Shown: positions 9,052 to 37,908 of the stretch, piece after piece
Layout: each line of letters begins with the position of its first letter
Position numbering within the stretch: the stretch's first letter is position 1
Source of the DNA: an uncultured Pseudomonadota bacterium
GTDB taxonomy: Bacteria > Pseudomonadota > Alphaproteobacteria > RF32 > CAG-239
DNA length: 64,000 nt
Direction of reading: 5' to 3'
Assembly: GCA_949295025.1 (NCBI GenBank)
Contig: CASFJK010000005.1
Span: forward strand, 13,235-77,234
Notes under the pieces: model-generated
What the model saw: the letters and a program-made list of their open reading frames with translations, nothing else
Databases searched by the model: none
What the model was told of the DNA's origin: nothing
Made by a program: the position numbers and the translations under genes

Positions 9052-9720
9052 TTAAATCCATCCCAACTCTAACGCTTTTTGCTGAGCCTTGTCGTTCAAA
9101 ACACTTTTACGATGACAAAGTGTAACCAACTCTTTTGCTTCAGGTAAATCAAACAAAAGCAAATCATTATCTTCCCAGAAAGAATGTTGTGTCAAAATAT
9201 AATATGTTAACATTTTGGCAGGATGAGGCAAAGAAAACAACTTTGCTTCTTCTTCCTTTTCCAATTCATTTCCTATGGCAAAATATTGCATAAAGATGTC
9301 TTCTGCATCCGGCAAATTAAAAAATTCGGCTATAACTTCACGGCTAAAACTAAGCTCTTTTTGAATACATAGCTTTATCACTTCAGAAGCATGAGGCAAA
9401 CTAAACAACTTAACACCATTTACTCTGGAAATAATTCCTTCATTAGAGACATAATGTTTTACAACATCTTCTGCATCGGAAAAATCAAAAATTTCTTTTT
9501 CAAGACGATCATTTAATACACCATTGCGAGAAATAAAAAGCTTAATCACCTCACTTGGATGAGGCAAGGTCAAAAACAAATCTTGCTCATCATAAAAATC
9601 AATCCAACTCAAAATAGCAAGTTTCACAAGCTCTTCCGCATCAGGACGTTCAAAAATCTGCTTCTTTTCTTCAGGTGTCAAACGACGATCTCTGAGAATT
9701 TTGCTATAAATCAAATCCAT
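9052..9720 (-). CDS. Hypothetical tandem-repeat protein (alternating A/B repeats of about 18 aa)
   Basis: A repeats: IFERPDAEELVKLAILS / IFDFSDAEDVVKHYVSN / FFNLPDAEDIFMQYFAIGN / LFDLPEAKELVTLCHRKS. B repeats: LTLPHPSEVIKLFISRNG / LFSLPHASEVIKLCIQKE / LFSLPHPAKMLTYYILTQ. Confidence 0.5.
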   Translation of the reverse strand: MDLIYSKILRDRRLTPEEKKQIFERPDAEELVKLAILSWIDFYDEQDLFLTLPHPSEVIKLFISRNGVLNDRLEKEIFDFSDAEDVVKHYVSNEGIISRVNGVKLFSLPHASEVIKLCIQKELSFSREVIAEFFNLPDAEDIFMQYFAIGNELEKEEEAKLFSLPHPAKMLTYYILTQHSFWEDNDLLLFDLPEAKELVTLCHRKSVLNDKAQQKALELGWI

Positions 9721-11643: not shown

Positions 11644-12600
11644 TTATTGAATAGAGGCATCGAGCGGATTAAAGCGCAAGAGCATTGTCTTCCATAAATC
11701 ATATTTATCAGCATAGCGATTAGCAAAAATTGAATATGGTTGACAAACATAAACTGCACGTCTTGCACTCTCGGCCACTGAACGGAAAGCCTTATCAGAA
11801 CTATAACGCGACATATCCAAAATTTTAGCATCACGCACCGTTCCGTCTTTATTGAGGAATACGCGCACCTCAATAATCATATCTTTAATACCTTGTGCAC
11901 CGGGATCAAGGTTCCAACAAGCACGCAATCTGCCGGCAATGGCATCAATTTCAGAGATTGACAATTCGCTGAAATAAGAACCTCCGGTTCCGCCCTCAAT
12001 ACCCATATTAGCAACATCTGTGCCTTCTTTAATGGTTGCAGTTGCGCTCTTGTTACCGGTCTCTTTTTCCAAAGCATCAACAGATGCAAGCAAGCTCTTT
12101 AACTGATTAGCCAGTTTTGGCTCATCTTTGGGTTGGGGAGCCTCTTTTTTAGGTTGCGGCTTTTTCGGTTGTGGTTTAGGAGCCGGTTTAGGCGCAGCTT
12201 TTTTAACCGGAACTTTTGGCTTCTTGGGTTGTGGCGCGACTAAAAAATCTTGTTTTGGCGGCTTTGGAGTTTCTTTCGTTTCTGTTGTTTCTTCCTTAGC
12301 TTTTGCCTTAGACTTCACTTCTTCTTGGCGCACTTCATCTTTCGTATATTTTTCTTCAACCTTGCGCTTAACCTTAGAAGCAGCCTTATCTTCTTTGCCA
12401 AACTTGGCTTTAGGCGGCAAGTTCGTCATTTCAGATATTTTCACATCTTTCAAATCGACAATAATCGGCACTTGGTTTAATGTAGCCCGATTTGACCAAA
12501 ACAAAGGCAAATCGACTATCATCATCAGAAAGACGACTAAATGCAATAACAAAGACTTTTTTACAGCCTTGTCCATATTTTCATCTTTAACGATTTGCAT
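11644..12600 (-). CDS. tolA: TolA-like protein
   Basis: N-terminal TM anchor, long K/P/E/A low-complexity linker (PKKPKVPVKKAAPKPAPKPQPKKPQPKK), and C-terminal TolA/TonB-like domain. Position immediately after tolQ-tolR. Confidence 0.7.
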   Translation of the reverse strand: MQIVKDENMDKAVKKSLLLHLVVFLMMIVDLPLFWSNRATLNQVPIIVDLKDVKISEMTNLPPKAKFGKEDKAASKVKRKVEEKYTKDEVRQEEVKSKAKAKEETTETKETPKPPKQDFLVAPQPKKPKVPVKKAAPKPAPKPQPKKPQPKKEAPQPKDEPKLANQLKSLLASVDALEKETGNKSATATIKEGTDVANMGIEGGTGGSYFSELSISEIDAIAGRLRACWNLDPGAQGIKDMIIEVRVFLNKDGTVRDAKILDMSRYSSDKAFRSVAESARRAVYVCQPYSIFANRYADKYDLWKTMLLRFNPLDASIQ

Positions 12601-13021
12601 TAGGTTTCGGTTCCGTTTTCAATCCCACTTTTTCAAATCCGGCTTCTTTCAAGATAGCCATCAAGCCAATAACACGACCATATTCAGCCCCTGTATCACC
12701 GGAAATTGTAACGGTAAGTTCGCTGTTTTCTTTACGAATGGCTTTGAGCTTATCCACGATTTTATCAGCCGGAACTTCGGTTTTACCAATGTAGTAATAA
12801 CCATCTTTATCCACGCTGATATTGACGGAAGTATCTTTACCTTCCATAGCTTTACCGCCGACTTTTGGTAAATCAAGCGCAATACCGGAAGTCATCAAAG
12901 GTGCTGCCACCATAAAGACGACCAAAAGCACCATCATCACATCCATCAAGTTGGTAATGTTAATATCGGCATTACGGCGATATTCACGATGTGAACGGCG
13001 AGATTTTTGAATAAAGGGCAT
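12587..13021 (-). CDS. tolR: TolR (ExbD/TolR family)
   Basis: ININTNLMDVMMVLLVVFM single TM helix and a periplasmic ExbD-like domain. Follows tolQ. Confidence 0.8.
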   Translation of the reverse strand: MPFIQKSRRSHREYRRNADINITNLMDVMMVLLVVFMVAAPLMTSGIALDLPKVGGKAMEGKDTSVNISVDKDGYYYIGKTEVPADKIVDKLKAIRKENSELTVTISGDTGAEYGRVIGLMAILKEAGFEKVGLKTEPKPNANR

Positions 13022-13024
13022 TAA

Positions 13025-13771
13025 TTATTCTCCTGCCATTTCGGCCTTAATAGCCGTATCATCAATTTCACGAGACAAAATGCTGGAGAACTCATCCATA
13101 AAGTTTTCCAATCGTTTGGCATATCTATCCAAATCGGAAGAAATTTTGTTATAAGCAACCACAGCCGGAATAGCGGCAATCAAACCGAAGGCAGTTGTAA
13201 ACAAAGCTTCGGCAATACCGGGAGCCATAGCAGACAAAGAGTTGCTTTGTGTTGCAGCAATAGCATTAAAGCTGTTAATAATACCCCAAACAGTTCCAAA
13301 CAAACCGACGAGCGGAGCAACAGAACCGGTAGAAGCCAAAAAGCCCAAACGAGTATCCAAGGCATCCAGCTCTTTATCCATAGAAACCATCATGGCTTTT
13401 TCAATACGCTGTTGTAAAGAAACACCGCGCAAACCTCTATCGGTTTTAGATTTCAAAATATTGGTGCGTTTCCATTCACGCATTGCAGAAACAAACATGG
13501 CAGACATAGGGTCTTGCGGACGATTACCGATAGAATCATACAATCTGTCCAAAGAACCACCGGACCAAAACTTTTCTTCAAAACTGCGAGAACGTTGTTT
13601 AACCTGACGAATGGTACCGATTTTTTCAATGATAATGGCCCAGCACCAAACGGAAGCAAAAATCAAACCGATCATTACGACTTTAGTGATTAAATCTGAT
13701 GCCCAGACTAAATCCCACATAGACATTTCAGCGGCTTTTGTAGCAACTTCATTCAAAGCTTCTGTTTCCAT
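13025..13771 (-). CDS. tolQ: TolQ (MotA/TolQ/ExbB proton channel)
   Basis: Three TM helices, conserved APLVGLFGTVWGIINSF and TTAFGLIAAIPAV segments. Upstream of tolR. Confidence 0.85.
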   Translation of the reverse strand: METEALNEVATKAAEMSMWDLVWASDLITKVVMIGLIFASVWCWAIIIEKIGTIRQVKQRSRSFEEKFWSGGSLDRLYDSIGNRPQDPMSAMFVSAMREWKRTNILKSKTDRGLRGVSLQQRIEKAMMVSMDKELDALDTRLGFLASTGSVAPLVGLFGTVWGIINSFNAIAATQSNSLSAMAPGIAEALFTTAFGLIAAIPAVVAYNKISSDLDRYAKRLENFMDEFSSILSREIDDTAIKAEMAGE

Positions 13772-13888: not shown

Positions 13889-14383
13889 CTATTTCACATA
13901 AGGCAAAGCAAAGAGAATATTAGGAGAAACCTTTCCTTGTTTAATATAGTCTTCCAGTTCCTGAGGCGTAAACCAGCGCACATCAGCCACCTCTGTTGGC
14001 TGTAAAGTCAAATCTTCAATTTTAGCTTCAGAATGAGCAAACCACACGTCAACCATACCGCCCCACGGGTCAGGCTCAGGGTTCTGATACACCAAGACCG
14101 GATTTTCAATTTTCAAACCGATTTCTTCCAATGTTTCGCGCTTGGCAGCTTCCAAAGAAGTTTCGCCGGTATCTGCCACACCACCATGAACCGACCACAT
14201 ATTCGGATCCACACGACGATTGGGCAAACGTTTTTGCATCAAAAATTGTCCCTTACTGTTTTTTACCCAAACATGCACACTCAAAAAATGTTTTTTCTGC
14301 GGCACAAATTCTTTTCGGGGTAAAACTTCCCCCGTTTTTTCGCGATTGATGGTAATAACGTCTACAAGTTCGGTTTCAGCCAT
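13889..14383 (-). CDS. NUDIX hydrolase
   Basis: Nudix box GGVADTGETSLEAAKRETLEEIGL (GX5EX7REUXEEXGU). Confidence 0.8.
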   Translation of the reverse strand: MAETELVDVITINREKTGEVLPRKEFVPQKKHFLSVHVWVKNSKGQFLMQKRLPNRRVDPNMWSVHGGVADTGETSLEAAKRETLEEIGLKIENPVLVYQNPEPDPWGGMVDVWFAHSEAKIEDLTLQPTEVADVRWFTPQELEDYIKQGKVSPNILFALPYVK

Positions 14384-14826
14384 TACAAACTCTCAATTTT
14401 GTTGACCAAAGCTTCCGGAATACGTATAGGACGCTTTTTATTCAGGCTGACATAAGCTAACTGTACCGTCATGGAAACAAGCAATTTATCTTGGCAATAA
14501 ATTTCTTGTTTCATCTCCAAGCGCGCCCCACTTAGGTTCATCACCTCACAGGTAACAGACAACAAATCATCTAAAATCGCCGGCGCTTTATATTCAATAT
14601 TGATACCTCTAACCATAAAGCCGCACATTTCTTCAGCTTGCAAAGCTTCGTGTTGGTTCACTCCCAGCGCACGGATAAATTCGGTTCTGGCTCTTTCGGC
14701 ATATTTGAGATAATTAGCATAATAAACTACCCCACCGGCATCGGTATCTTCATAATACACACGAGCCGGAAAAGCAAAAACTTTACCATGAAATTGTCCT
14801 TGTGGTGCCAAAACTTCATAACCCAT
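14383..14826 (-). CDS. ybgC: Tol-Pal-associated acyl-CoA thioesterase (4HBT/YbgC family)
   Basis: Hot-dog fold pattern YYEDTDAGGVVYYANYLKYAERARTEF. Located between ruvB and tolQ as in many Proteobacteria. Confidence 0.75.
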   Translation of the reverse strand: MGYEVLAPQGQFHGKVFAFPARVYYEDTDAGGVVYYANYLKYAERARTEFIRALGVNQHEALQAEEMCGFMVRGINIEYKAPAILDDLLSVTCEVMNLSGARLEMKQEIYCQDKLLVSMTVQLAYVSLNKKRPIRIPEALVNKIESL

Positions 14827-14840
14827 TATTTTTTCTCCTT

Positions 14841-15914
14841 CTAAGCATTATTATCGGCTTCTATGGCTTGCAACAAATCAAATTGCTCTGCTTGCGGACG
14901 ATATTTTTTCACCCGCGGCATGCCTAAATATTCGCAGCCCAAATCAGAAATCACACGTCCGCGCGGTGTCCTTTGCAAAAATCCGAGCTTGAGCAAAAAT
15001 GGCTCAATCACTTCTTCAATCGTGTCGCGTTCTTCCGAAAGCGCTGCCGCCAAGGTATCCACACCTACAGGACCTCCGCCGTAATTTTGCAAAATGCAAC
15101 TTAAGTACCGACGGTCAAAAGCATCCAAACCATAGTTATCAACATCCAAACGGCGCAAAGCATTATCCGCAATTTTGTTATCAACGCTTTCAGCATTACA
15201 AACAGCACCAAAGTCACGCACACGACGAAGCAAGCGCCCCGCCACACGAGGTGTTCCGCGAGAACGTTTGGCAATTTCAATTGCACCCGATTCGGAAATT
15301 GGCATTCCTAAAAGATTAGCCCCACGAATAACAATTTGTTTAAGTTCTTCCGGCGTATAAAAATCAAGACGTAACGGAATACCGAAACGCTCACGTAACG
15401 GGGTGGACAACAAACCAGAACGCGTGGTCGCACCAACCAACGTAAATGGTTGCAAATCAATGCGCACTGAGCGTGCCGAAGGACCTTCACCGATAATCAA
15501 ATCGAGCTGAAAATCTTCCATTGCTGAATAAAGCACTTCTTCAATGGCCGGATTAAGACGATGAATTTCATCAATAAACAAAACATCATTTTTTTCAAGG
15601 TTGGTTAAAATTGCTGCCAAATCACCTGATTTTGAAATCATCGGTGCTGAAGTGGCGCGGAAATTAACGCCCAACTCTTTTGCTACAATGGAAGCCAAAG
15701 TGGTTTTACCAAGTCCCGGAGGTCCAAAGAGCAACACATGGTCCAATGCATCTCCACGTTGCTTAGCAGCTTGAATGAAAACCTTCAAATTTTCGCAAAC
15801 TTGACGCTGTCCGACAAAGTCATCCAAACTTTGCGGACGCAAATTAATAGGCATTCCGTTTTCTTTCTCTTCTTCCGTCTCGTGTGGAGAAACCAATCTT
15901 TCGGCATTCATCAT
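14841..15914 (-). CDS. ruvB: Holliday junction branch migration ATPase RuvB
   Basis: [12 protein letters not shown], Walker [10 protein letters not shown], Walker [10 protein letters not shown], and a conserved C-terminal winged helix. Confidence 0.95.
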
Positions 15915-15917
15915 GGT

Positions 15918-16589
15918 TTATAAATCTTTCTTAGCAAATTCTTTTAAGGACAAACGAATAAGTTCGGAAACATCCGCACTCGGATTTTCGCTCTGAACTT
16001 TATTAACGGCACGATAAGCCTCCATGCGTTGGTAACCCAAATTAACCAAAGCCGAAATAGCATCTTCACTGTTAGCTGAGTTACTCTCCATAGCCACTAA
16101 ACTATCTTCATAAGCATTAACTTCTTGATCTGCATCCATATTCAGCTCCCTTTCCATTTCTGCAGTGGTTGAAGTTGCCGCTACCGGAATGGTAACGATT
16201 TTATCTTTAAGCTCGGTCACAATACGCGCAGCCAATTTTGGTCCCACACCGTTAGCCCGTGTAAATGAGGCTTTGTCTTGCGCTGAAATGGCTTGAGCCA
16301 ATTGCACCGGTGTTAAAGCAGAAAGAATGCTCAAGCATACCTTTGCCCCCACGCCCTGCACTTTAGTCAACGTGATAAACCATTCTTTTTCCAAGGCCGA
16401 AGCAAAACCAAACAACGTGATACTGTCTTCTCTGACAACAGTTTCAGTCAACACCGAAGCTGCTTCCCCCACATGCAACCGAGCCAAGGTTTTAGCAGAA
16501 GCATAAACCAAATAACCAACCCCGTTCACATCAATAATAAAATAATCTTCTCCGATGGTATCAACCATTCCACGCAGTTTTGCAATCAT
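15918..16589 (-). CDS. ruvA: Holliday junction DNA helicase RuvA
   Basis: MIAKLRG.V......IIDVNGVGY N-terminus, HhH motifs LTKVQGVGAK / ANGVGPKLAARI. Immediately downstream of ruvB. Confidence 0.9.
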   Translation of the reverse strand: MIAKLRGMVDTIGEDYFIIDVNGVGYLVYASAKTLARLHVGEAASVLTETVVREDSITLFGFASALEKEWFITLTKVQGVGAKVCLSILSALTPVQLAQAISAQDKASFTRANGVGPKLAARIVTELKDKIVTIPVAATSTTAEMERELNMDADQEVNAYEDSLVAMESNSANSEDAISALVNLGYQRMEAYRAVNKVQSENPSADVSELIRLSLKEFAKKDL

Positions 16590-16708
16590 TTTTATAAGCC
16601 TTTTGTTTCTATAATGTTCTCATGCTATACAAATTTGAGCCGACTTACAAGCAAATTTTAGCACCTCTAAACAAAAAAAGCTCCGTAACTAAATACGAAG
16701 CTTTTTTA

Positions 16709-17866
16709 TTAATACCAAATATAAAAAGTATCCCCACTTTCATACATCTCATGCAACAAAGGTTCTTGTCGCAAATCTTTCACATTCTTAACCACATATA
16801 CAAATTTATCAGTCAAAACCGGAAATTCCAGATTAACCGGATTTTGCACAAATATTTCAGCCATCCATCCATTTCGCCAAAAAACTCTCACTGCCGCTTT
16901 TTTTGTATCATTTACAAAATAATAATAAGCCATATCTTTAGGCAAATCCGGATTACCATCAAACTTTTGTAACACCATTTTCACGCCGCAAAACACATCC
17001 TCATAAGAACTAAATGATGATATTTTTCGCCATAAGCGTTTAGAAAAAACGTGTTTATTGATGAGCAACTGCTTAAAAATATTGCTCCATTGATACGAAC
17101 TCAAATCAGGATAATGTTCAATCATATCAATCAAACCAATCTGGCCGAGATTTCCTGGCAACAATGTTTTGTGCAAATATTCCATCCAAAGTGTCAATCT
17201 CTTACGCAATTCCAGCATTTGTTCCTGCATAAATTGAAAATGCCGTGGTTGCATGGCAGAAATTGTCAAACCATAATCACAACGTTTGCGGAGCTCGTCC
17301 ATCACATCTTTTTCTTGATAAATGTCAGGAACAATTCTCACCACAAAATACTTATTTTTGCAAAATCCGGCAATAAATTCTATATCAACAGCATGTAGAA
17401 AAGCTTTATCTTCCAACAAAGGAAAATGCATACTCTTCAAAAAAACACCGGAAACCACAAATTCATAAACTTGAACATCTTGCCCATAGGGTAATAATAC
17501 AAAATCTAAGCAAACATCACTTTCCCACAAAGAATAGTTTTCAAAATCATCTTCTTTTAAATAAAAACAATCTGAATCCATCGGAAAAGAACTACTATGT
17601 TTCAAATTATACAAAATATTTTCTATAATTTTTGCCACACTGCGCAATCTTGGCAATGCCCATAATTTTTCATATTCCTCAGGTGTCAACAATTCTTGTA
17701 AAGATTTTAAATAAGGAATCATTTTCAGCTTCTGCCCAAAAGATAATGCCTCAACTTTTGATAAAATTTGTTGATATGTATTATTTTTGCACCCCAAACA
17801 ACGATTTAGTTTTCTTCGTTGTTCTTTAAGTGTTTCAAACACTTTTGCCAAATTAACATTTTTCAT
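16709..17866 (-). CDS. Hypothetical 385 aa protein inserted between ruvA and ruvC
   Basis: Long ORF with no motif I recognise. It sits where ruvA and ruvC are normally adjacent. Confidence 0.5.
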   Translation of the reverse strand: MKNVNLAKVFETLKEQRRKLNRCLGCKNNTYQQILSKVEALSFGQKLKMIPYLKSLQELLTPEEYEKLWALPRLRSVAKIIENILYNLKHSSSFPMDSDCFYLKEDDFENYSLWESDVCLDFVLLPYGQDVQVYEFVVSGVFLKSMHFPLLEDKAFLHAVDIEFIAGFCKNKYFVVRIVPDIYQEKDVMDELRKRCDYGLTISAMQPRHFQFMQEQMLELRKRLTLWMEYLHKTLLPGNLGQIGLIDMIEHYPDLSSYQWSNIFKQLLINKHVFSKRLWRKISSFSSYEDVFCGVKMVLQKFDGNPDLPKDMAYYYFVNDTKKAAVRVFWRNGWMAEIFVQNPVNLEFPVLTDKFVYVVKNVKDLRQEPLLHEMYESGDTFYIWY

Positions 17867-17944
17867 AATATATAAAAAAAATAGGGTTAATAATAAATTT
17901 TATTAACCCTTTTATAACAAAGCATCTTAAAAATCGCAAGTTTT

Positions 17945-18649
17945 TTAAGCCGATTTTTTCATCTCATAATTTTTAAGATACTCAATCCACTCCGGACAAT
18001 TATTTTCTCTAAAAAACTCATAAAGGAAATCGAACATAAATTGATGCCTGATTTGAGCTTCTTTTTTACCGGCATCAGTCAACATCAAATCTTTAAGTTT
18101 GAGCATTTTCTCAAAAAAATGATTGATAAAATTGTCAGACTTTCGATTAGGCTTTTTATATTCCGTTGCCGAAAGATTAACTTCAGGCCAAATATTTCTG
18201 TCAAAAATCTGGTCCGTTCCGGAATGGCATTTATCAAGAGCATATGCCAAACAACGCACAGTTCCCATCGCACCGATTGCTTCCAACATATCGGCATCGG
18301 AAACAAGCATTCCTTCTTTGGTTTGCGGACGAATACCTTGCAAACATTTGCTATATCCCATATTGGCAATTATATCACATACTTGAGTAGATGTTAGAGT
18401 ATCCACACCGTTTTGTCGCATAATTTTCTTGGCATTGGTTAAATTTTTAGCATGTTCTTCACCAAAGAGTTTATAGTCATCAGCATCATGCAAAAGTGCT
18501 GCCAAAGCCACCACATCTCTGTTCACATTTTCATTCTTTGCCAAATCCAGAGCCAAAGCATAAACGCGCTCCACATGGTCAGCACCATGCCCGCTCTTAT
18601 CTCCGTTCAAAAGCTTGCGAACATCTTCTAAAACACTTTTCATATTCAT
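17945..18649 (-). CDS. HD-domain phosphohydrolase
   Basis: H..HGADHVERV...LLHDADD metal-binding HD signature. Its stop abuts the ruvC start. Confidence 0.7.
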   Translation of the reverse strand: MNMKSVLEDVRKLLNGDKSGHGADHVERVYALALDLAKNENVNRDVVALAALLHDADDYKLFGEEHAKNLTNAKKIMRQNGVDTLTSTQVCDIIANMGYSKCLQGIRPQTKEGMLVSDADMLEAIGAMGTVRCLAYALDKCHSGTDQIFDRNIWPEVNLSATEYKKPNRKSDNFINHFFEKMLKLKDLMLTDAGKKEAQIRHQFMFDFLYEFFRENNCPEWIEYLKNYEMKKSA

Positions 18650-19138
18650 TTACTTCATTCCCAAAGCGCGAGCATTACGATAATTATAATGCGTAATAGC
18701 CATTGCCAAAGCATCGGAAGAGTCATTATTCTTAGGCTTACACCCCGGCAACAATACTTTTACCATGGTTTCGACCTGACTTTTTTCAGCGCGCCCCACT
18801 CCGACAAGAGCTTTTTTCACCTTTGTTGGTTCATATTCGCAAACCGGAATTCCATAGAGTGCCGGAGCCATAATCACCACACCTCTTGCCATGCCAAGCT
18901 TAATGGTAGATGTTGGGTTTTCATTCAAAAACACTTGCTCAATGGCTGCCTCTTGTGGCTGATAAGTCTCAATCACTTCTTTCAAAGTGTTATGAATAAC
19001 AGTCAATCTTTCCGGCAACGGCAATTTTGGATCTGTTTTGATAAAACCATCAGCAACATAACGCAAATGATTATTCACGACTTCAATCACGCCCCAACCG
19101 GTAGAAGATAAACTCGGGTCCAAACCTAAGATTCGCAT
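18650..19138 (-). CDS. ruvC: Crossover junction endodeoxyribonuclease RuvC
   Basis: MRILGLDPSLSSTGWGVIE N-terminus (catalytic Asp), RNase H-like fold pattern, DSSDALAMAITH C-terminal motif. Confidence 0.9.
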   Translation of the reverse strand: MRILGLDPSLSSTGWGVIEVVNNHLRYVADGFIKTDPKLPLPERLTVIHNTLKEVIETYQPQEAAIEQVFLNENPTSTIKLGMARGVVIMAPALYGIPVCEYEPTKVKKALVGVGRAEKSQVETMVKVLLPGCKPKNNDSSDALAMAITHYNYRNARALGMK

Positions 19139-19203
19139 TTTTCCTCTTTCTTAAAAATAAAGCGGAACCTTTAAGCTCCGCCTTATTAACAATCACTCTA
19201 AAA

Positions 19204-19959
19204 TTATTCAGCTTCTAAAGCTTTCAAAACTTCTTCAGAAAACTCTGCATTATGATAAACTTTTTGGACGTCATCATCGTCTTCCAAAGCATCAACAAAG
19301 TCTAAGAACTTTTGAGCTGTTTCCAAATCGGTAATATCGGTTTTAACATTAGCTTTCCAATCCAAACGAGAAGCAGATGGTGTACCGAATTGTCCTTCCA
19401 AAACTTCTGTAACGGCAGACAAATCATCTGGCAAAGTTTCAATCTCGTGATGTTCATCATCGCTCACAACGTCATTAGCGCCGGCCTCCAAAGCAGCTTC
19501 AAACATTTTATCAGCTTCGGCAACAGATACGGGATATTGAATAAAACCAATACGTTCAAAGTTAAAAGTAACCGAACCGGTTTCACCCATAGCACCGCCG
19601 CGTTTACCAAAAATGGTACGAATATTTCCGGCTGTTCTGTTTTTGTTATCGGTCATTGCTTCAACAATAACGGCAACTTTACCCGGACCAAAACCTTCAT
19701 AACGAGCACTTACATAATCGGCGCCACCGGCTGTTTGGCTGGCTTTGGCAATAGCACGTTCAATATTATCTTTCGGCATACTTTCAGCACGAGCTGCTTG
19801 AATAGCCAAACGCAAACGTGGGTTTTTATCAGGTTCAGGCAAACCGCTTTTAGCAGCAATGGTAATATCTCTTGCCAATTTTGCAAAAACTTTTGCTTTT
19901 TTAGCATCTTGAGCACCTTTACGGTACATAATATTCTTAAACTGGGAGTGTCCAGACAT
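19204..19959 (-). CDS. yebC: YebC/PmpR family DNA-binding transcriptional regulator
   Basis: MSGHSQFKNIMYRKGAQDAKKAKVFAKL... is the highly conserved YebC N-terminus. Canonical position upstream of ruvC. Confidence 0.9.
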   Translation of the reverse strand: MSGHSQFKNIMYRKGAQDAKKAKVFAKLARDITIAAKSGLPEPDKNPRLRLAIQAARAESMPKDNIERAIAKASQTAGGADYVSARYEGFGPGKVAVIVEAMTDNKNRTAGNIRTIFGKRGGAMGETGSVTFNFERIGFIQYPVSVAEADKMFEAALEAGANDVVSDDEHHEIETLPDDLSAVTEVLEGQFGTPSASRLDWKANVKTDITDLETAQKFLDFVDALEDDDDVQKVYHNAEFSEEVLKALEAE

Positions 19960-20112: not shown

Positions 20113-20877
20113 TTACTCAATAACCATATAATCAACTCGTTGGTCATCAACCGATAATATTCTCAGTTTTACACCTTTGATATTAATCATCCCCGGTTTA
20201 GCCGGAAAACTATATTCTTTGAAACCACCTGTTGTTGAATCTTCATAATCATAATAAATAAACCACATGCGTCCTAAACGAACACCATCATATTTAATAT
20301 CGAACCCTTTAATTGGTTTTGATTGTTCTGTTTTGGTAATAAATACCGGCTCAAAACGAAATTTATCATTATTAGATACAAATTCTTGACGCAACAAGAC
20401 CAAACGTTTATTTTTAATCATACCTGTCTGATAATAAAGTTTGCCTGTTTTCTCTTCAGCCAAAACAACAAAATCTTCCATTTGCGTTGGTAAAAGCATA
20501 TATTTCAGACCATCAATCGTAACATAGCCGATAATATCAAAAGTCTGATTATTTTTATATTCATAAGGAACAGACACATTGCTTAAAACCACATTACCAG
20601 CCGCACGCACTTTTTCAGTAACAAAATAGCTTCTTTCAAAAGTCTTATCACTCAAAACAGAATAGCCTTTAAAAGCTGTACGCAATTCATTTACTTTAAA
20701 ACTTTTTTCATTAATATCTTCTGTTTTTACCAGTTTTGGAGCATTGTCTTTATAATCAATACCAATAGAATTAAACTTGTCAAACCATGCCCTTCTTCCT
20801 GACCAGACATCAACCTCTCCCGCATAAATACAAGCATTTAAGCACAAAGCCGCGCATAAAATAAAAGCTTTTTTCAT
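20113..20877 (-). CDS. Hypothetical lipoprotein/secreted protein
   Basis: MKKAFILCAALCLNACIYAG signal with a lipobox-like LNAC. No recognisable domain. Confidence 0.45.
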   Translation of the reverse strand: MKKAFILCAALCLNACIYAGEVDVWSGRRAWFDKFNSIGIDYKDNAPKLVKTEDINEKSFKVNELRTAFKGYSVLSDKTFERSYFVTEKVRAAGNVVLSNVSVPYEYKNNQTFDIIGYVTIDGLKYMLLPTQMEDFVVLAEEKTGKLYYQTGMIKNKRLVLLRQEFVSNNDKFRFEPVFITKTEQSKPIKGFDIKYDGVRLGRMWFIYYDYEDSTTGGFKEYSFPAKPGMINIKGVKLRILSVDDQRVDYMVIE

Positions 20878-24624: not shown

Positions 24625-25791
24625 TTACATTACGGCAAGAGATATTTTTTCAATCATTCCTTCCGTGCTCGGCACTGCCAATTTTTCGTGAATAAAACCA
24701 CACAGATTGGAAGCGCTGATACTTGTTTTCGGGATGCCGAATGTTGTTTCCACAAATCCGGCAACAGCATCGGCGAATTCCAAAATCACAGCTTCTGGAG
24801 CACCAAGGTAGAGTTCATCGACAACGATATATGCGCCCTCCATATCCTCTTTACCATAGAATTCGATATATGAACAAGCATATACGTCATCCGGCTTGGT
24901 GATATTTACCTGAGGGTTAGACATTGCAACCATCGCATCACCCCACTGCGGGATACAACCGATGAAGTCACCAAATAAGTGAACCCATACGTAACGCGCC
25001 GCCTTAGCGATAAAAATGGCGCGTCCTTGCTCATCAACTGAATGGAATTCATAACGAGCGAAGAACTCTTCGTTTTTCACGCCCCAGCTACCACCACCTG
25101 AGCAATACTCAACCTGCCAAACATCATCAGCAGCATATTCGGCTGCTTCGAATGCTCCATTGGTGTGTGCCATAATAAACTCACCTGTGTCTGCCTTGCG
25201 GGCATAAACCGGTTTCAGAGCATTTTTGATAGCAATAGAAGCGTTGCCGTCTTTGGCCATTTTGGCATAAGCGAGAGCCTTAAAATTTACGCCAACCACA
25301 AAGCAGCGATTTTTCTCGTTATAGAGCTCCCTCGGCACAGAAACCTGTTCCTGACCGTCAAAAGCAATATAATGAAGGCTTTCGTATGTTCCGTCGCTTT
25401 CGGCGGTGATGTAACCTAAACCATCGGCCTCCAACTCTTCCCGCTCATATTTTGAAGCAAGATAGAACTTGCGACCTTGTTTGTCATGCCACAAGATACC
25501 GGTCATCGGCACCATCTGGCAGACGATTTCACCGTTCTGATATGCAATGACGGGGTTCTCAGCCTTTTTCAAAGCCTTTGCGACCTTCTCGGGGTTAGAG
25601 GAATCAATCAACTTTGCCCAACGGCCGTTTCCGTCGGTGAAGAAAGATGATTTAACTTCCTTTCCACCTCTCACCACTACCGTCTTGCCTGTTTCGTCAA
25701 AAGTTACAAAGTTTTCACAATCTCTTAAGCCTCCTTTGACATTTACCAATGAATACTCGTAACCGGCACGGTCAAAAATTTTCTGTTCCAT
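24625..25791 (-). CDS. Hypothetical 388 aa protein with GC clearly above the local background
   Basis: Long ORF whose DNA is clearly GC-richer than its neighbours. No motif recognised. Confidence 0.5.
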   Translation of the reverse strand: MEQKIFDRAGYEYSLVNVKGGLRDCENFVTFDETGKTVVVRGGKEVKSSFFTDGNGRWAKLIDSSNPEKVAKALKKAENPVIAYQNGEIVCQMVPMTGILWHDKQGRKFYLASKYEREELEADGLGYITAESDGTYESLHYIAFDGQEQVSVPRELYNEKNRCFVVGVNFKALAYAKMAKDGNASIAIKNALKPVYARKADTGEFIMAHTNGAFEAAEYAADDVWQVEYCSGGGSWGVKNEEFFARYEFHSVDEQGRAIFIAKAARYVWVHLFGDFIGCIPQWGDAMVAMSNPQVNITKPDDVYACSYIEFYGKEDMEGAYIVVDELYLGAPEAVILEFADAVAGFVETTFGIPKTSISASNLCGFIHEKLAVPSTEGMIEKISLAVM

Positions 25792-30604: not shown

Positions 30605-32488
30605 TTATAACGTTAAGAGTCTTAACAAAACGTCAATAACATAAGCAATTCTGCCATCAGGCAAGGACAAAGGCAACAAAGAGGTTTGCAAAAAGAACTT
30701 TTTACCCGAAGTATAATTTTTAATACGCATACCATGCATATTCTTGTCCACATCTATTCCGTTTTGTGGCACAACATAATTAAAGAAAAGCAATAAATCT
30801 TTACCATCTAACTCTGCAGTAACCTTTTTAACCGCCCCCAAATGAACAATCTGATTTTTCCCGCCTTTATCAAAAATCGTATCAAAACCATCATACGGAC
30901 GATATAAATAAACATCATCCCCTTCACCGGCATAAAGAACATCATCGCCGGTCAGAGGAAGAAAGATATTGTCATCAAAATTTCTTCCATACAACGTATC
31001 ATTGCGAGCAGTTCCTTCATAAACCATAGTTTCAATATTTTTCAAATCTATATCATCAATGATATGCCCAATAGATTTTATTTTATCAATCGGATAAAAC
31101 TTAATAAAAGGATTTTGAGGCATAACCCAATTTCTATAAAAACTCCAAAGCATCATTTTGGTTTCAAAAGCACCGTTTTGCAGATAGTAAACTTCAACCA
31201 TTTTCCTAAAAGCACTAATTTTTTTCGAATCAATCTCCCATTTTTTGCTTTTAGAATTATAACGAATACTAAGATTTTCATAGAGCGGACTCAAAACTCC
31301 ATTTTTATCTAAAACATTTTGTAAATAGAAGTAAAAATCATCATAAGCTTTCCATATATAAGGCGAAGCGGCTCTAGTCGGATTAAGAGAAATTTCATTA
31401 CCGCTAATAGTTCCTTGATATGTTCTATTCATAAATTTTTCTAAGAAAGCCAATTTTCTGGCATCCCCTATATAATTCCAGCCCTGTTCAGAAACTCTGC
31501 TCTGCAACGGCACATCTATAACATTTGCCCAAGCATATATAATATCATTAAGTAAAGACAGACGTTTAATGGCTTTTTGTTCGTGCATATAAGAATAAAC
31601 TTTTTGCCCCAGCATGCCGGTTTCATCTTTGAAGATGGCATCTTGCAGAGCCGGTACTTTTCCAACTCCTGAAAGATTGGGAATATGAGTCAATTTCACT
31701 CCAAATTTTTCACGCGGAGCACGTTTTACCATCGGATCTTTTTGCAACCAAACTTCATAAATTTGGGATGCTGTTCCATCCGCAAATTCAACATTAATAT
31801 AATCTCCAATAATATTACCGGAACTATCTTTCTTTTGATGAGGATACACTTTTAAATCTATACTTTTGATATTTTTTAGATTTTCCTTTTGTTTACCAGA
31901 AAGTTTATTAAAATTCCAAAAAGACAATTCCGGTAAAGAAGTCCTCGGTGTATTTATCTGTTTTTTATTTCCAACTAAATGGCGCAAAATATCAAAAGAA
32001 CTCTGTTGCTCTTTCAATGGCATATCTGCAAAATAAGTTCCAATAACATGAGCCCCGTTTTTCAACTTATCCGACGTTTCATTCCATACCAAAATCACAT
32101 CATCTGCACCTAAAATTGGCATTTGCTCGGCAATTTCATCTTGATCAAAATCAAAGAACTTTTTTGGGAAGCACTTCTGCAGAGATGACAAACCGCATAA
32201 TGAAACACCGTCACCCCCAACATCCAAAACCAATATTTTTGTAAACTCATTTTCAAGCACTTCTTTTCCATTAGGCATTTTAATAAAATATCTGCGTGGC
32301 AATTTTGCAATTTTTTGAGATTGTTGACGTATAAAATCTCGTTCTTGAGAAGAGAGTTGTCGTAATGGCGCGCCTATTTTTTCAGGATTTTTAAAACAAG
32401 AGAAATACAAATCATAAATAATATATCCACCCACAATCAAAAAAACCGGAACAACAACGTTTAATAACAACAATAAAAACTTTTTCAT
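30605..32488 (-). CDS. Membrane-anchored hypothetical protein with C-terminal RTX-like calcium-binding repeats
   Basis: N-terminal TM anchor, large domain with no recognisable motif, then TGDDVLYAGEGDDVYLY...DGFDTIFDKGGKNQI. Confidence 0.45.
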   Translation of the reverse strand: MKKFLLLLLNVVVPVFLIVGGYIIYDLYFSCFKNPEKIGAPLRQLSSQERDFIRQQSQKIAKLPRRYFIKMPNGKEVLENEFTKILVLDVGGDGVSLCGLSSLQKCFPKKFFDFDQDEIAEQMPILGADDVILVWNETSDKLKNGAHVIGTYFADMPLKEQQSSFDILRHLVGNKKQINTPRTSLPELSFWNFNKLSGKQKENLKNIKSIDLKVYPHQKKDSSGNIIGDYINVEFADGTASQIYEVWLQKDPMVKRAPREKFGVKLTHIPNLSGVGKVPALQDAIFKDETGMLGQKVYSYMHEQKAIKRLSLLNDIIYAWANVIDVPLQSRVSEQGWNYIGDARKLAFLEKFMNRTYQGTISGNEISLNPTRAASPYIWKAYDDFYFYLQNVLDKNGVLSPLYENLSIRYNSKSKKWEIDSKKISAFRKMVEVYYLQNGAFETKMMLWSFYRNWVMPQNPFIKFYPIDKIKSIGHIIDDIDLKNIETMVYEGTARNDTLYGRNFDDNIFLPLTGDDVLYAGEGDDVYLYRPYDGFDTIFDKGGKNQIVHLGAVKKVTAELDGKDLLLFFNYVVPQNGIDVDKNMHGMRIKNYTSGKKFFLQTSLLPLSLPDGRIAYVIDVLLRLLTL

Positions 32489-37071: not shown

Positions 37072-37908
37072 ATGGAATGCGAAATGATTAAAATACTTTT
37101 GGTTACAAATGAAACTTTAGGAGAAGGTGAGGATAGTTTCTTGGCTTCTTTGTTAAAAGATGATTTTATCGTTGAACTGTATGATGTTAGCCAAGATATT
37201 CCTTCAGATTGTGCCAACTTTGATATTTTCTTATTCCGAAATGCGTGGCCTGAGCGTATTTATGACAGAAAAATTAAGTGTCTTATAAATATAGCGATAA
37301 AAAATAACATAATCATCTACAATTCTCTCCAGCAAAGGAGCAAATCTTTTTCTCTCAAAAGTTATTTATATTATCTCAACGACAATTTTGATAATGTTAT
37401 ACCAACATATAAAACATTAGCGGAATTTCCAGAAAATAAAGCAGTCTTAATAAAGCCGCAAAATGGCGGTTCTTCTTACGGTGTAAAGATTTTTGCAAAT
37501 AAAAATAAGATACGCCGTAAGTTAAACAATTACATAATCCAAGAGTATATTCCTTTTGCGAAAGAACAAAGTTACTTTTTTATTGATAAAAAGTTTTGTT
37601 ATGCTCTCGAAACAATAGCCTCCGGAATGGATAACAGGTGGGAATTAAAGGAATTCGCCCCAAACAGGAAAATGCTACAGATTGCAAAATCTTTTATGAA
37701 ATGGAATAATATGCCCTATGGAATTGATAGAATCGACTTTGGCGTAACTTCCGAAGGGCTTATGCTTTTAATGGAAATTGAAAGCGACAGAAGCTATTTA
37801 AGCCTTGAGGAATTATCCAAAGATACTTTAGAGATGTTTATAAAAGAACTAAAACAATCCTTGAAAACTGTTTTTTTGCATAGTCAAAAAACTAAAAACC
37901 ACTCATAG
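37072..37908 (+). CDS. ATP-grasp fold ligase (RimK/glutathione-synthetase-like) (islet cargo)
   Basis: AVLIKPQNGGSSYGVKIF (ATP-grasp Lys and Gly-rich loop), IIQEYIPF, and C-terminal GIDRIDFGVTSEG...LMEIES Mg/ATP-binding region, in RimK-like order. Confidence 0.55.
   Translation: MECEMIKILLVTNETLGEGEDSFLASLLKDDFIVELYDVSQDIPSDCANFDIFLFRNAWPERIYDRKIKCLINIAIKNNIIIYNSLQQRSKSFSLKSYLYYLNDNFDNVIPTYKTLAEFPENKAVLIKPQNGGSSYGVKIFANKNKIRRKLNNYIIQEYIPFAKEQSYFFIDKKFCYALETIASGMDNRWELKEFAPNRKMLQIAKSFMKWNNMPYGIDRIDFGVTSEGLMLLMEIESDRSYLSLEELSKDTLEMFIKELKQSLKTVFLHSQKTKNHS

Follow-up and report, generated by a model that had tools for sequence, protein, structure and literature searches.

The locus considered here lies in a stretch of 64,000 nucleotides (nt; the whole stretch is called the window below) of contig CASFJK010000005.1, from assembly GCA_949295025.1 of an uncultured alphaproteobacterium, and it raises the question of why two genes, one for an HD-domain phosphohydrolase (hereafter HD) and one for an orphan protein of 385 amino acids (aa; hereafter X), stand between ruvC and ruvA. 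A reading made earlier from the sequence alone (the original prediction) had correctly placed both open reading frames (ORFs) between ruvC and ruvA in the same orientation, with X at 16709-17866, and had proposed that they are foreign genes, possibly a nucleotide-signalling or anti-phage module coupled to the SOS/recombination response; lineage-specific operon members were its alternative. We consider it probable that they are two unrelated, independently inherited genes occupying a gap between two transcription units, which would be yebC-ruvC and ruvAB-ybgC-nudix-tolQRA.

Comparison of related loci revealed four arrangements of the ruvC-ruvA slot. The order ruvC-HD-ruvA, with no X, is found in loci L020-L025, where synteny is otherwise the same; ruvC-HD-X-ruvA is the arrangement of the window, L001-L011 and L016/17; ruvC-X-ruvA, with no HD, occurs in L018/19, L026/27 and L029; and in L013-15 the gene after ruvC-HD-X is not ruvA but one for a protein of over 830 aa that matches nothing in Pfam. 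All close relatives carry both genes, flanked by housekeeping genes in conserved synteny. Because either gene can occupy the slot in the absence of the other, the two are not an obligate pair and are inherited independently, and the obligate co-occurrence expected of a two-gene module was not observed. In a neighbour-joining, midpoint-rooted tree of YebC plus RuvC, HD-only L023 is the outgroup, HD-only L020 is sister to the clade carrying both genes, and the X-only genomes form a separate branch, a pattern most simply read as long residence of both genes in the slot followed by differential loss. The synteny comparison that had been proposed alongside the original prediction thus upholds an old position for each gene, and not their pairing.

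The description of the genes as foreign likewise fails. X has no match in phage, plasmid or IMG/VR collections, and when the slot was assessed as a mobile or foreign island, low GC content was its sole island-like trait. The GC fraction is 0.33 in X and 0.38 in HD, compared with 0.43-0.45 in the ruv genes, and from flanking values of 0.40-0.45 it falls to 0.28-0.35 across X and the 3' part of HD; since the window mean is 0.373 and the variable gene unk254 stands at 0.325, this dip is no evidence of foreign origin. In all related loci that were examined both ORFs are uninterrupted, with ratios of non-synonymous to synonymous substitution rates (dN/dS) below 1, which indicates that HD and X are real genes and not chance ORFs.

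The features of the block are as follows, in order of transcription on the minus strand:
19204-19959, minus strand: yebC (TACO1/YebC family), first in the co-directional block; Pfam Transcrip_reg 2.7e-52, TACO1_YebC_N 6.7e-29
19153-19182, minus strand: hairpin and T-run in the 65-nt yebC-ruvC spacer, GGCGGAGC-TTAAAG-GTTCCGCT, then TTTATTTTT, as read from the sequence
18650-19138, minus strand: ruvC, Holliday-junction resolvase; Pfam RuvC 9.8e-47
17945-18649, minus strand: HD-domain phosphohydrolase of YpgQ/YedJ type, 234 aa; Pfam HD 1.3e-9
17874-17910, minus strand: AU-rich 11-bp hairpin and T8 in the HD-X spacer, weakly terminator-like; terminator scan match 17910-17883
16709-17866, minus strand: X, 385-aa soluble orphan protein, predicted mixed helical and beta-sheet; ORF
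16673-16707, minus strand: predicted intrinsic terminator right after the X stop, with A-tract, 8-bp core stem and T7; minimum free energy -17.7 kcal/mol, z -4.0
16590-16660, minus strand: conserved block upstream of ruvA, promoter- or 5'-untranslated-region-like, common to the X-less loci L020 and L023
15918-16589, minus strand: ruvA; Pfam RuvA_N, HHH_5, RuvA_C
14841-15914, minus strand: ruvB; Pfam RuvB_N 1.9e-80
14383-14826, minus strand: ybgC-like thioesterase (4HBT); ORF, with Pfam 4HBT seen in orthologues
13889-14383, minus strand: Nudix hydrolase, the second nucleotide hydrolase of the block; Pfam NUDIX 1.4e-20
13025-13771 and 12587-13021, minus strand: tolQ and tolR; ORFs, with MotA_ExbB and ExbD seen in orthologues
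11644-12600, minus strand: tolA-like ORF with no Pfam match

These positions correct several details of the original prediction. It had the HD stop abutting the ruvC start, and the order is the reverse: transcription runs along the minus strand with ruvC upstream, and the ruvC stop TAA (18652-18650) abuts the HD start ATG (18649-18647). The ruvC-ruvA interval, taken there to run from a ruvA "end" at 15918 to a ruvC "start" at 19138, spans 16590-18649, as ruvA begins at 16589. Nor is the block otherwise canonical, since the Nudix gene sits between ybgC and tolQ, its start overlapping the ybgC stop. This Nudix gene is missing from L023-25, and its L020-22 counterparts are short or degenerate.

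Contiguity of ruvC with ruvAB, which had been taken as the rule, is not general. In the E. coli K-12 ruv region, nudB-yebC-ruvC is followed by yebB, on the opposite strand, and yobI, and then by ruvA-ruvB. The window resembles that layout in having yebC before ruvC and ruvA after a gap filled by lineage-specific genes, and the presence of NudB, a Nudix nucleotide diphosphatase, in the E. coli yebC-ruvC cluster parallels that of HD here, except that the nucleotide hydrolase lies downstream of ruvC in the window and upstream of yebC in E. coli. The E. coli gap genes themselves (the papain-like amidase YebB and the tiny YobI) are unrelated to HD and X, which are, moreover, both co-oriented with their neighbours. 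The ruvC-ruvA slot would be an inter-operon gap that hosts lineage-specific genes, as in E. coli.

Candidate transcription signals within the block are consistent with such a division. The hairpin between yebC and ruvC directly precedes the ruvC ribosome-binding site (AAGAGGAAAAATG) and may act as an attenuator or partial terminator within the yebC-ruvC cluster. In the 78-nt spacer between HD and X, a conserved CTTGCGATTTTT...TTATA block lies upstream of the second hairpin, whose arms and T-run are kept in L001, L005, L006 and L013 (spacer fold about -13 kcal/mol) and which would act as a weak terminator; given the similar hairpin between yebC and ruvC, such elements are frequent in the block, transcription may read through them, and a hairpin alone does not delimit an operon. 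After X, 9 of 11 lineages have a stem and T-run; the stems are unrelated in sequence, with compensatory changes in L011, and the two lineages that have none are alleles with an extra gene next (the L013-15 type). The roughly 70 nt before ruvA align with the HD-ruvA spacer of the X-less genomes, and in alignment A5 X-bearing and X-less loci alike share the pattern TTTTGTT...TTG...TTTGT(A/T)TA...AAGG...ATG. This block did not pass a strict sigma-70 scan. Its presence in all arrangements suggests that ruvAB have start signals of their own, and from these sequence features we infer a putative promoter upstream of ruvA and the boundaries of the two transcription units.

The proposed coupling to the SOS response finds no counterpart in these signals. 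A search for the alphaproteobacterial LexA box GTTC-N7-GTTC, which covered the exact consensus only and is therefore a weak test, found none near 11-20 kb; the two matches in the window both lie near 33.2-33.5 kb, compared with 1.3 expected by chance. X, furthermore, usually has its own terminator, and ruvA its conserved upstream block. The tempting picture of a defence module wired to SOS and recombination is removed as unsupported.

HD, for its part, is by its sequence a YpgQ/YedJ-type phosphohydrolase, and so a known kind of enzyme. The HD-superfamily motif noted in the original prediction is present (SGHGADH...LLHDADD), with a Pfam HD (PF01966) score of 38.8 bits against a cut-off of 22 over residues 23-124. 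Among PDB sequences, HD matches, with alignments covering its full length, 3DJB at 3.2e-38 (residues 7-218), 2PJQ at 5e-29, 2QGS at 1e-27 and 3DTO at 3e-27, followed by B. subtilis YpgQ (5DQV, 1e-19) and E. coli YedJ (3GW7, 2e-10). YpgQ is a Mn-dependent (d)NTP (deoxyribo- or ribonucleoside triphosphate) pyrophosphohydrolase with metal ligands H29, H58, D59 and D124 and substrate residues H25, R136, F140 and H158 (PMC8177086). All eight positions align in HD, the metal ligands with H25, H54, D55 and D120 and the substrate residues with H21, R132, Y136 and H177, where the replacement of F140 by tyrosine is conservative. HD scores 57 bits against the cut-off of 286 for the YedJ equivalog (NCBIfam NF007515 / PRK10119) and is therefore a family relative only. 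Like HD, the characterized or structurally solved proteins of this group (YpgQ, 5DQV/5DQW; 3DJB from B. thuringiensis; 2PJQ; 2QGS; 3DTO; YedJ, 3GW7) are all single-domain and of about 210-235 aa; HD differs from them in being alphaproteobacterial, in following ruvC directly and in the tyrosine substitution, and its activity is a prediction.

At least 1992 clusters at E<=1e-20 make this a large family, and the position of HD is constant in all HD-bearing relatives, X-less ones included. In more distant relatives, homologues with 62-64% identity occupy an identical slot, yebC-ruvC-HD-ruvA-ruvB-ybgC...tolQR, abutting or overlapping ruvC and with no X beside them (L020-L025). The occurrence of HD in the slot of X-less relatives marks it as an old resident and not a recent import, and the direct junction of its start with the ruvC stop suggests translational coupling, such that HD and the resolvase are most likely translated together. 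On the model of B. subtilis YpgQ, HD most likely hydrolyses (d)NTPs and so keeps the nucleotide pool clean; it would be a single-metal-site house-cleaning phosphohydrolase, long established in the wider clade. With its constant position in the clade and a known family of housekeeping type, which the original prediction had named as grounds against its own reading, HD essentially fits the alternative of a lineage-specific operon member, whereas X fits it in position only: its place is conserved, and it is not a known enzyme. The placement of HD after ruvC adds a further case of a nucleotide-pool enzyme beside recombination genes, while HD itself is ordinary.

X is of a different nature. As the original prediction had stated, it has no recognisable motifs: the full protein gave nothing significant in Pfam, NCBIfam, PADLOC or PHROGs, and neither the single protein nor a family profile found a PDB sequence match below E=0.03. 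Pfam searches with 22 family members, and with four domain-sized pieces from several alleles, also yielded nothing significant; the best matches, HTH_OrfB_IS605 (E=0.056, residues 14-36) and CoV_NSP9 (E=0.035), were non-significant and were treated as noise. A word-indexed search of 5.8 billion clusters returned 14 clusters with 51-100% identity, and an exhaustive profile search with HMMER over 1.84 billion representatives returned just 12 proteins at E<=1e-3, eight of which are full-length distant relatives (364-399 aa, 17-26% identity) whose homology is confirmed by pairwise tblastn. The family amounts to about 25 sequence clusters in total, all from uncultured Alphaproteobacteria; in a species-representative genome collection it is limited to four metagenome-assembled genomes (uncultured Alphaproteobacteria or uncultured proteobacterium), and a further protein search with a wide alignment added no members. 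The window holds no paralogue, and a 388-aa orphan at 24625-25791, considered as one, was rejected as unrelated.

An AlphaFold2 model built from a 22-sequence alignment (predicted local distance difference test, pLDDT, 84; predicted template modelling score 0.72) depicts an N-terminal helical part, a beta-rich central part, a helical segment opening with a long helix (207-232) and a C-terminal unit of five beta-strands. A Foldseek search of the model against PDB and BFVD gave no match at E<=1e-3 (best E 0.49 and 0.04, template modelling score <0.15), and the nucleotidyltransferase, cGAS/Mab21 and kinase folds that the original prediction had suggested looking for were not matched in PDB. Across the family E163 and E229 are the only invariant residues, with E64, F164, W260, G333-W334 and E347 nearly so. 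A PD-(D/E)xK nuclease assignment for the central beta domain was rejected as unsupported, since in an alignment inspected by eye the acidic position 135 is not kept in all alleles and no lysine follows E163. In the divergent alleles P0015-P0017, P0020 and P0021, the loop leading into the C-terminal beta domain (about columns 400-420 of alignment A2) contains an acidic D/E tract, such as DDDDDDEN or DDGDGDADE; the window allele has no such tract.

What sets X apart is its rate of change relative to the genes around it. Between the window and its closest relatives, protein identity is 95-99% for YebC, 93-97% for RuvC, 95-98% for RuvA, 97-100% for RuvB, 98-99% for TolQ and 77-87% for HD, whereas that of X is 69, 68, 59, 60, 58, 43, 22 and 26%. 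Other orphan genes of the same genomes retain 85-94% identity, and in a comparison of L018 with L026, RuvC is 92% and YebC 96% identical, against 27% for X. By the Nei-Gojobori method, dN/dS is 0.20-0.27 for X in close comparisons (dN 0.22 and dS 0.82 between the window and L005), 0.07-0.22 for HD and 0.01-0.05 for the ruv and tol genes. X is by far the fastest-evolving gene of the region: it is constrained by purifying selection, yet changes 10-25 times faster at non-synonymous sites.

Against L016, however, dN of X reaches 0.9 (dN/dS 0.65) while dS of the neighbouring genes is 0.3-0.7, which rules out drift in situ at a dN/dS of about 0.25 as the explanation. L016 carries an X allele only 22% identical to that of the window, yet nests within the window's closest subgroup in the YebC plus RuvC tree, and more generally the X allele classes conflict with the core-gene tree. 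DNA homology amounts to 84-88% on either side of X and breaks off abruptly at its edges, at position 17952 against L016 and 17859 against L013, and against L011 it ends at 17849 and resumes at 16996. Taken together, the abrupt ends of homology, the nesting of L016 and the excess of dN point to whole or partial allele replacement by recombination, or to episodic positive selection. The divergence is spread along the whole protein, with the C-terminal domain slightly better conserved, and the allele divergence of HD does not follow X allele class.

This combination of hypervariability, alleles that conflict with the tree and sharp breakpoints is the pattern expected of a determinant of conflict or specificity, and we tentatively favour such a role for X above the alternatives discussed below, at somewhat less than even likelihood. 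X would be an independent cistron and an old resident of the slot, usually with its own terminator, whose divergent allele classes are swapped between near-identical backgrounds; it would work neither with HD nor with RuvABC, but as an accessory protein driven by biotic conflict or specificity toward phage, competitors or host. It is possible, if doubtful, that X founds a family with a previously unseen fold, whose divergent allele classes, kept at one slot across a clade of uncultured Alphaproteobacteria, are exchanged by recombination and which serves as a phage-defence sensor, a self/non-self marker or a host effector and not in housekeeping.

Staphylococcal agr specificity groups and Bacillus comQXP pherotypes are polymorphic allele-group loci at fixed positions. 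X is comparable to them in evolutionary pattern only, namely a constant locus, deeply divergent and tree-incongruent alleles, and sharp breaks at the flanks; it shares no sequence, domain or gene-content similarity with them, consists of one soluble protein lacking a signal peptide, a partner receptor and any known signal, and is not claimed as a member of either system. Genes with the pattern of X often determine interactions with phage, competitors or a host. With no relatives in sequence or fold and about 22% identity amid neighbours at 93-100%, while length, position and terminator are kept, the family offers a small and defined target for structural and functional work in poorly known uncultured Alphaproteobacteria.

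Among the alternatives, the one that survives best, though we regard it as unlikely, is that X is a lineage-specific Holliday-junction accessory factor that regulates, loads or inhibits RuvC or RuvAB, or binds DNA, its slot reflecting co-expression. X lies between ruvC(-HD) and ruvA even where X proteins are about 20% identical, its best-conserved part is the five-strand beta unit formed by the C-terminal 80 residues, some alleles carry the acidic tracts described above, and the faint, non-significant match at residues 14-36 is helix-turn-helix-like. On the other hand, X drops to 22% identity where its supposed partners keep 93-100%, a rate mismatch unusual for a stable partner; L020-L025 have lost X and kept intact ruv genes; and in L013-15 a large other gene, and not ruvA, follows X, while L028 carries a distant X homologue (767-1906, P0022, E=2e-6 to the family profile) that is away from the ruv genes, the sole member not beside ruvC, and has no HD. 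Nor does any nucleic-acid-binding family match X significantly, and X usually ends at its own terminator.

That X is a passenger of no importance to function, an ORF under low constraint that drifts or decays in the inter-operon gap and diverges neutrally, appears very improbable. X does have the highest dN/dS of the region, a low GC content and no recognisable domains, and it has been lost in some lineages. Yet even down to 17% identity every lineage keeps an intact ORF of steady length (364-399 aa); comparisons that are not saturated give a dN/dS well below 1; core residues (E163, E229, W260, G333-W334 and E347) are invariant or nearly so; the AlphaFold model is confident and compact; and a terminator persists after X although its stem sequence has been replaced entirely. 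Moreover, with a uniform dN/dS of 0.25 a dN of 0.9 could not arise where dS of the neighbours is 0.3-0.7.

Least probable of all is the two-gene nucleotide-signalling or anti-phage module inserted in the ruv operon and responsive to damage or recombination, for although HD and X are adjacent and co-oriented in the window and most close relatives, X evolves fast like many defence proteins, HD has relatives in phages (phrog_3921, 3e-11) and the L028 homologue of X stands beside nucleoside hydrolase and Nudix genes, each gene occurs in the slot without the other, neither matches PADLOC-DB v2 (none at E<=1), X has no fold match of the expected kinds and is not represented in the phage, plasmid or IMG/VR collections, HD is an enzyme of a large YpgQ-type family and its alleles do not diverge in step with X allele class, the exact-consensus search gave no LexA box around the operon and a hairpin with T-run splits HD from X.

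Several observations weigh against our favoured account of two separate genes with a conflict or specificity role for X. The proposed substrate of HD leans on a homologue at E=1e-19 and not on an equivalog. X may be co-transcribed with ruvC-HD, as the HD-X hairpin is weak and a similar one lies between yebC and ruvC. The role suggested for X is drawn from evolutionary pattern, and X has no PADLOC match and no signal peptide. Its retention in the ruvC-ruvA slot at about 20% identity could instead reflect a functional tie to recombination. Finally, the neighbourhood in L028 gives a faint hint of a link between X and nucleotide metabolism: X lies there between gatB and a group comprising an inosine-uridine nucleoside hydrolase, two Nudix genes and a Zip transporter (down to 5525).

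Some related loci depart from the common arrangement in the genes next to the block. The ORF of more than 830 aa in L013-15 (L013:3009-5129, L014:1625-4114, L015:1517-3934) follows a group-2 X allele (P0016), is rich in K, E and N, has a GC fraction of 0.18 at third codon positions and no Pfam match, and ends in proline-rich repeats AMPPPMPTQAHGA, with three copies before the contig end; it looks like a eukaryote-directed or surface effector. In one sublineage, at L006 (8980-11977) and L007 (6267-11232), synteny breaks just downstream of the ruv block, where tolQRA do not follow the Nudix gene; at the break are an epimerase, an NTP-transferase/HAD fusion, a GHMP kinase, a GT2 glycosyltransferase and a phosphoribosyl pyrophosphate synthetase.

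The genome appears rich in orphan proteins. Upstream of yebC, a 254-aa ORF (20113-20877, minus strand) with a lipoprotein-like N-terminus MKKAFILCAALCLNAC and no Pfam match keeps its position in all related loci and evolves fast, with 62-79% identity and a dN/dS of 0.13-0.24 among close relatives. A highly variable 222-aa ORF downstream of an ABC transporter (9052-9720, minus strand), also with no Pfam match, is 38% identical in L001 and finds only partial matches, at 77-79%, in L005 and L008. Large ORFs with no Pfam match at E<=1e-4 lie at 4802-6367 (plus strand, 521 aa), 30605-32488 (minus strand, 627 aa) and 49905-52568 (minus strand, 887 aa), and further ones at 2469-3053 (plus strand, 194 aa) and 37072-37908 (plus strand, 278 aa). 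The window also encodes a class-A-type beta-lactamase family protein at 6781-7656 on the plus strand (Pfam Beta-lactamase2, 3e-41).

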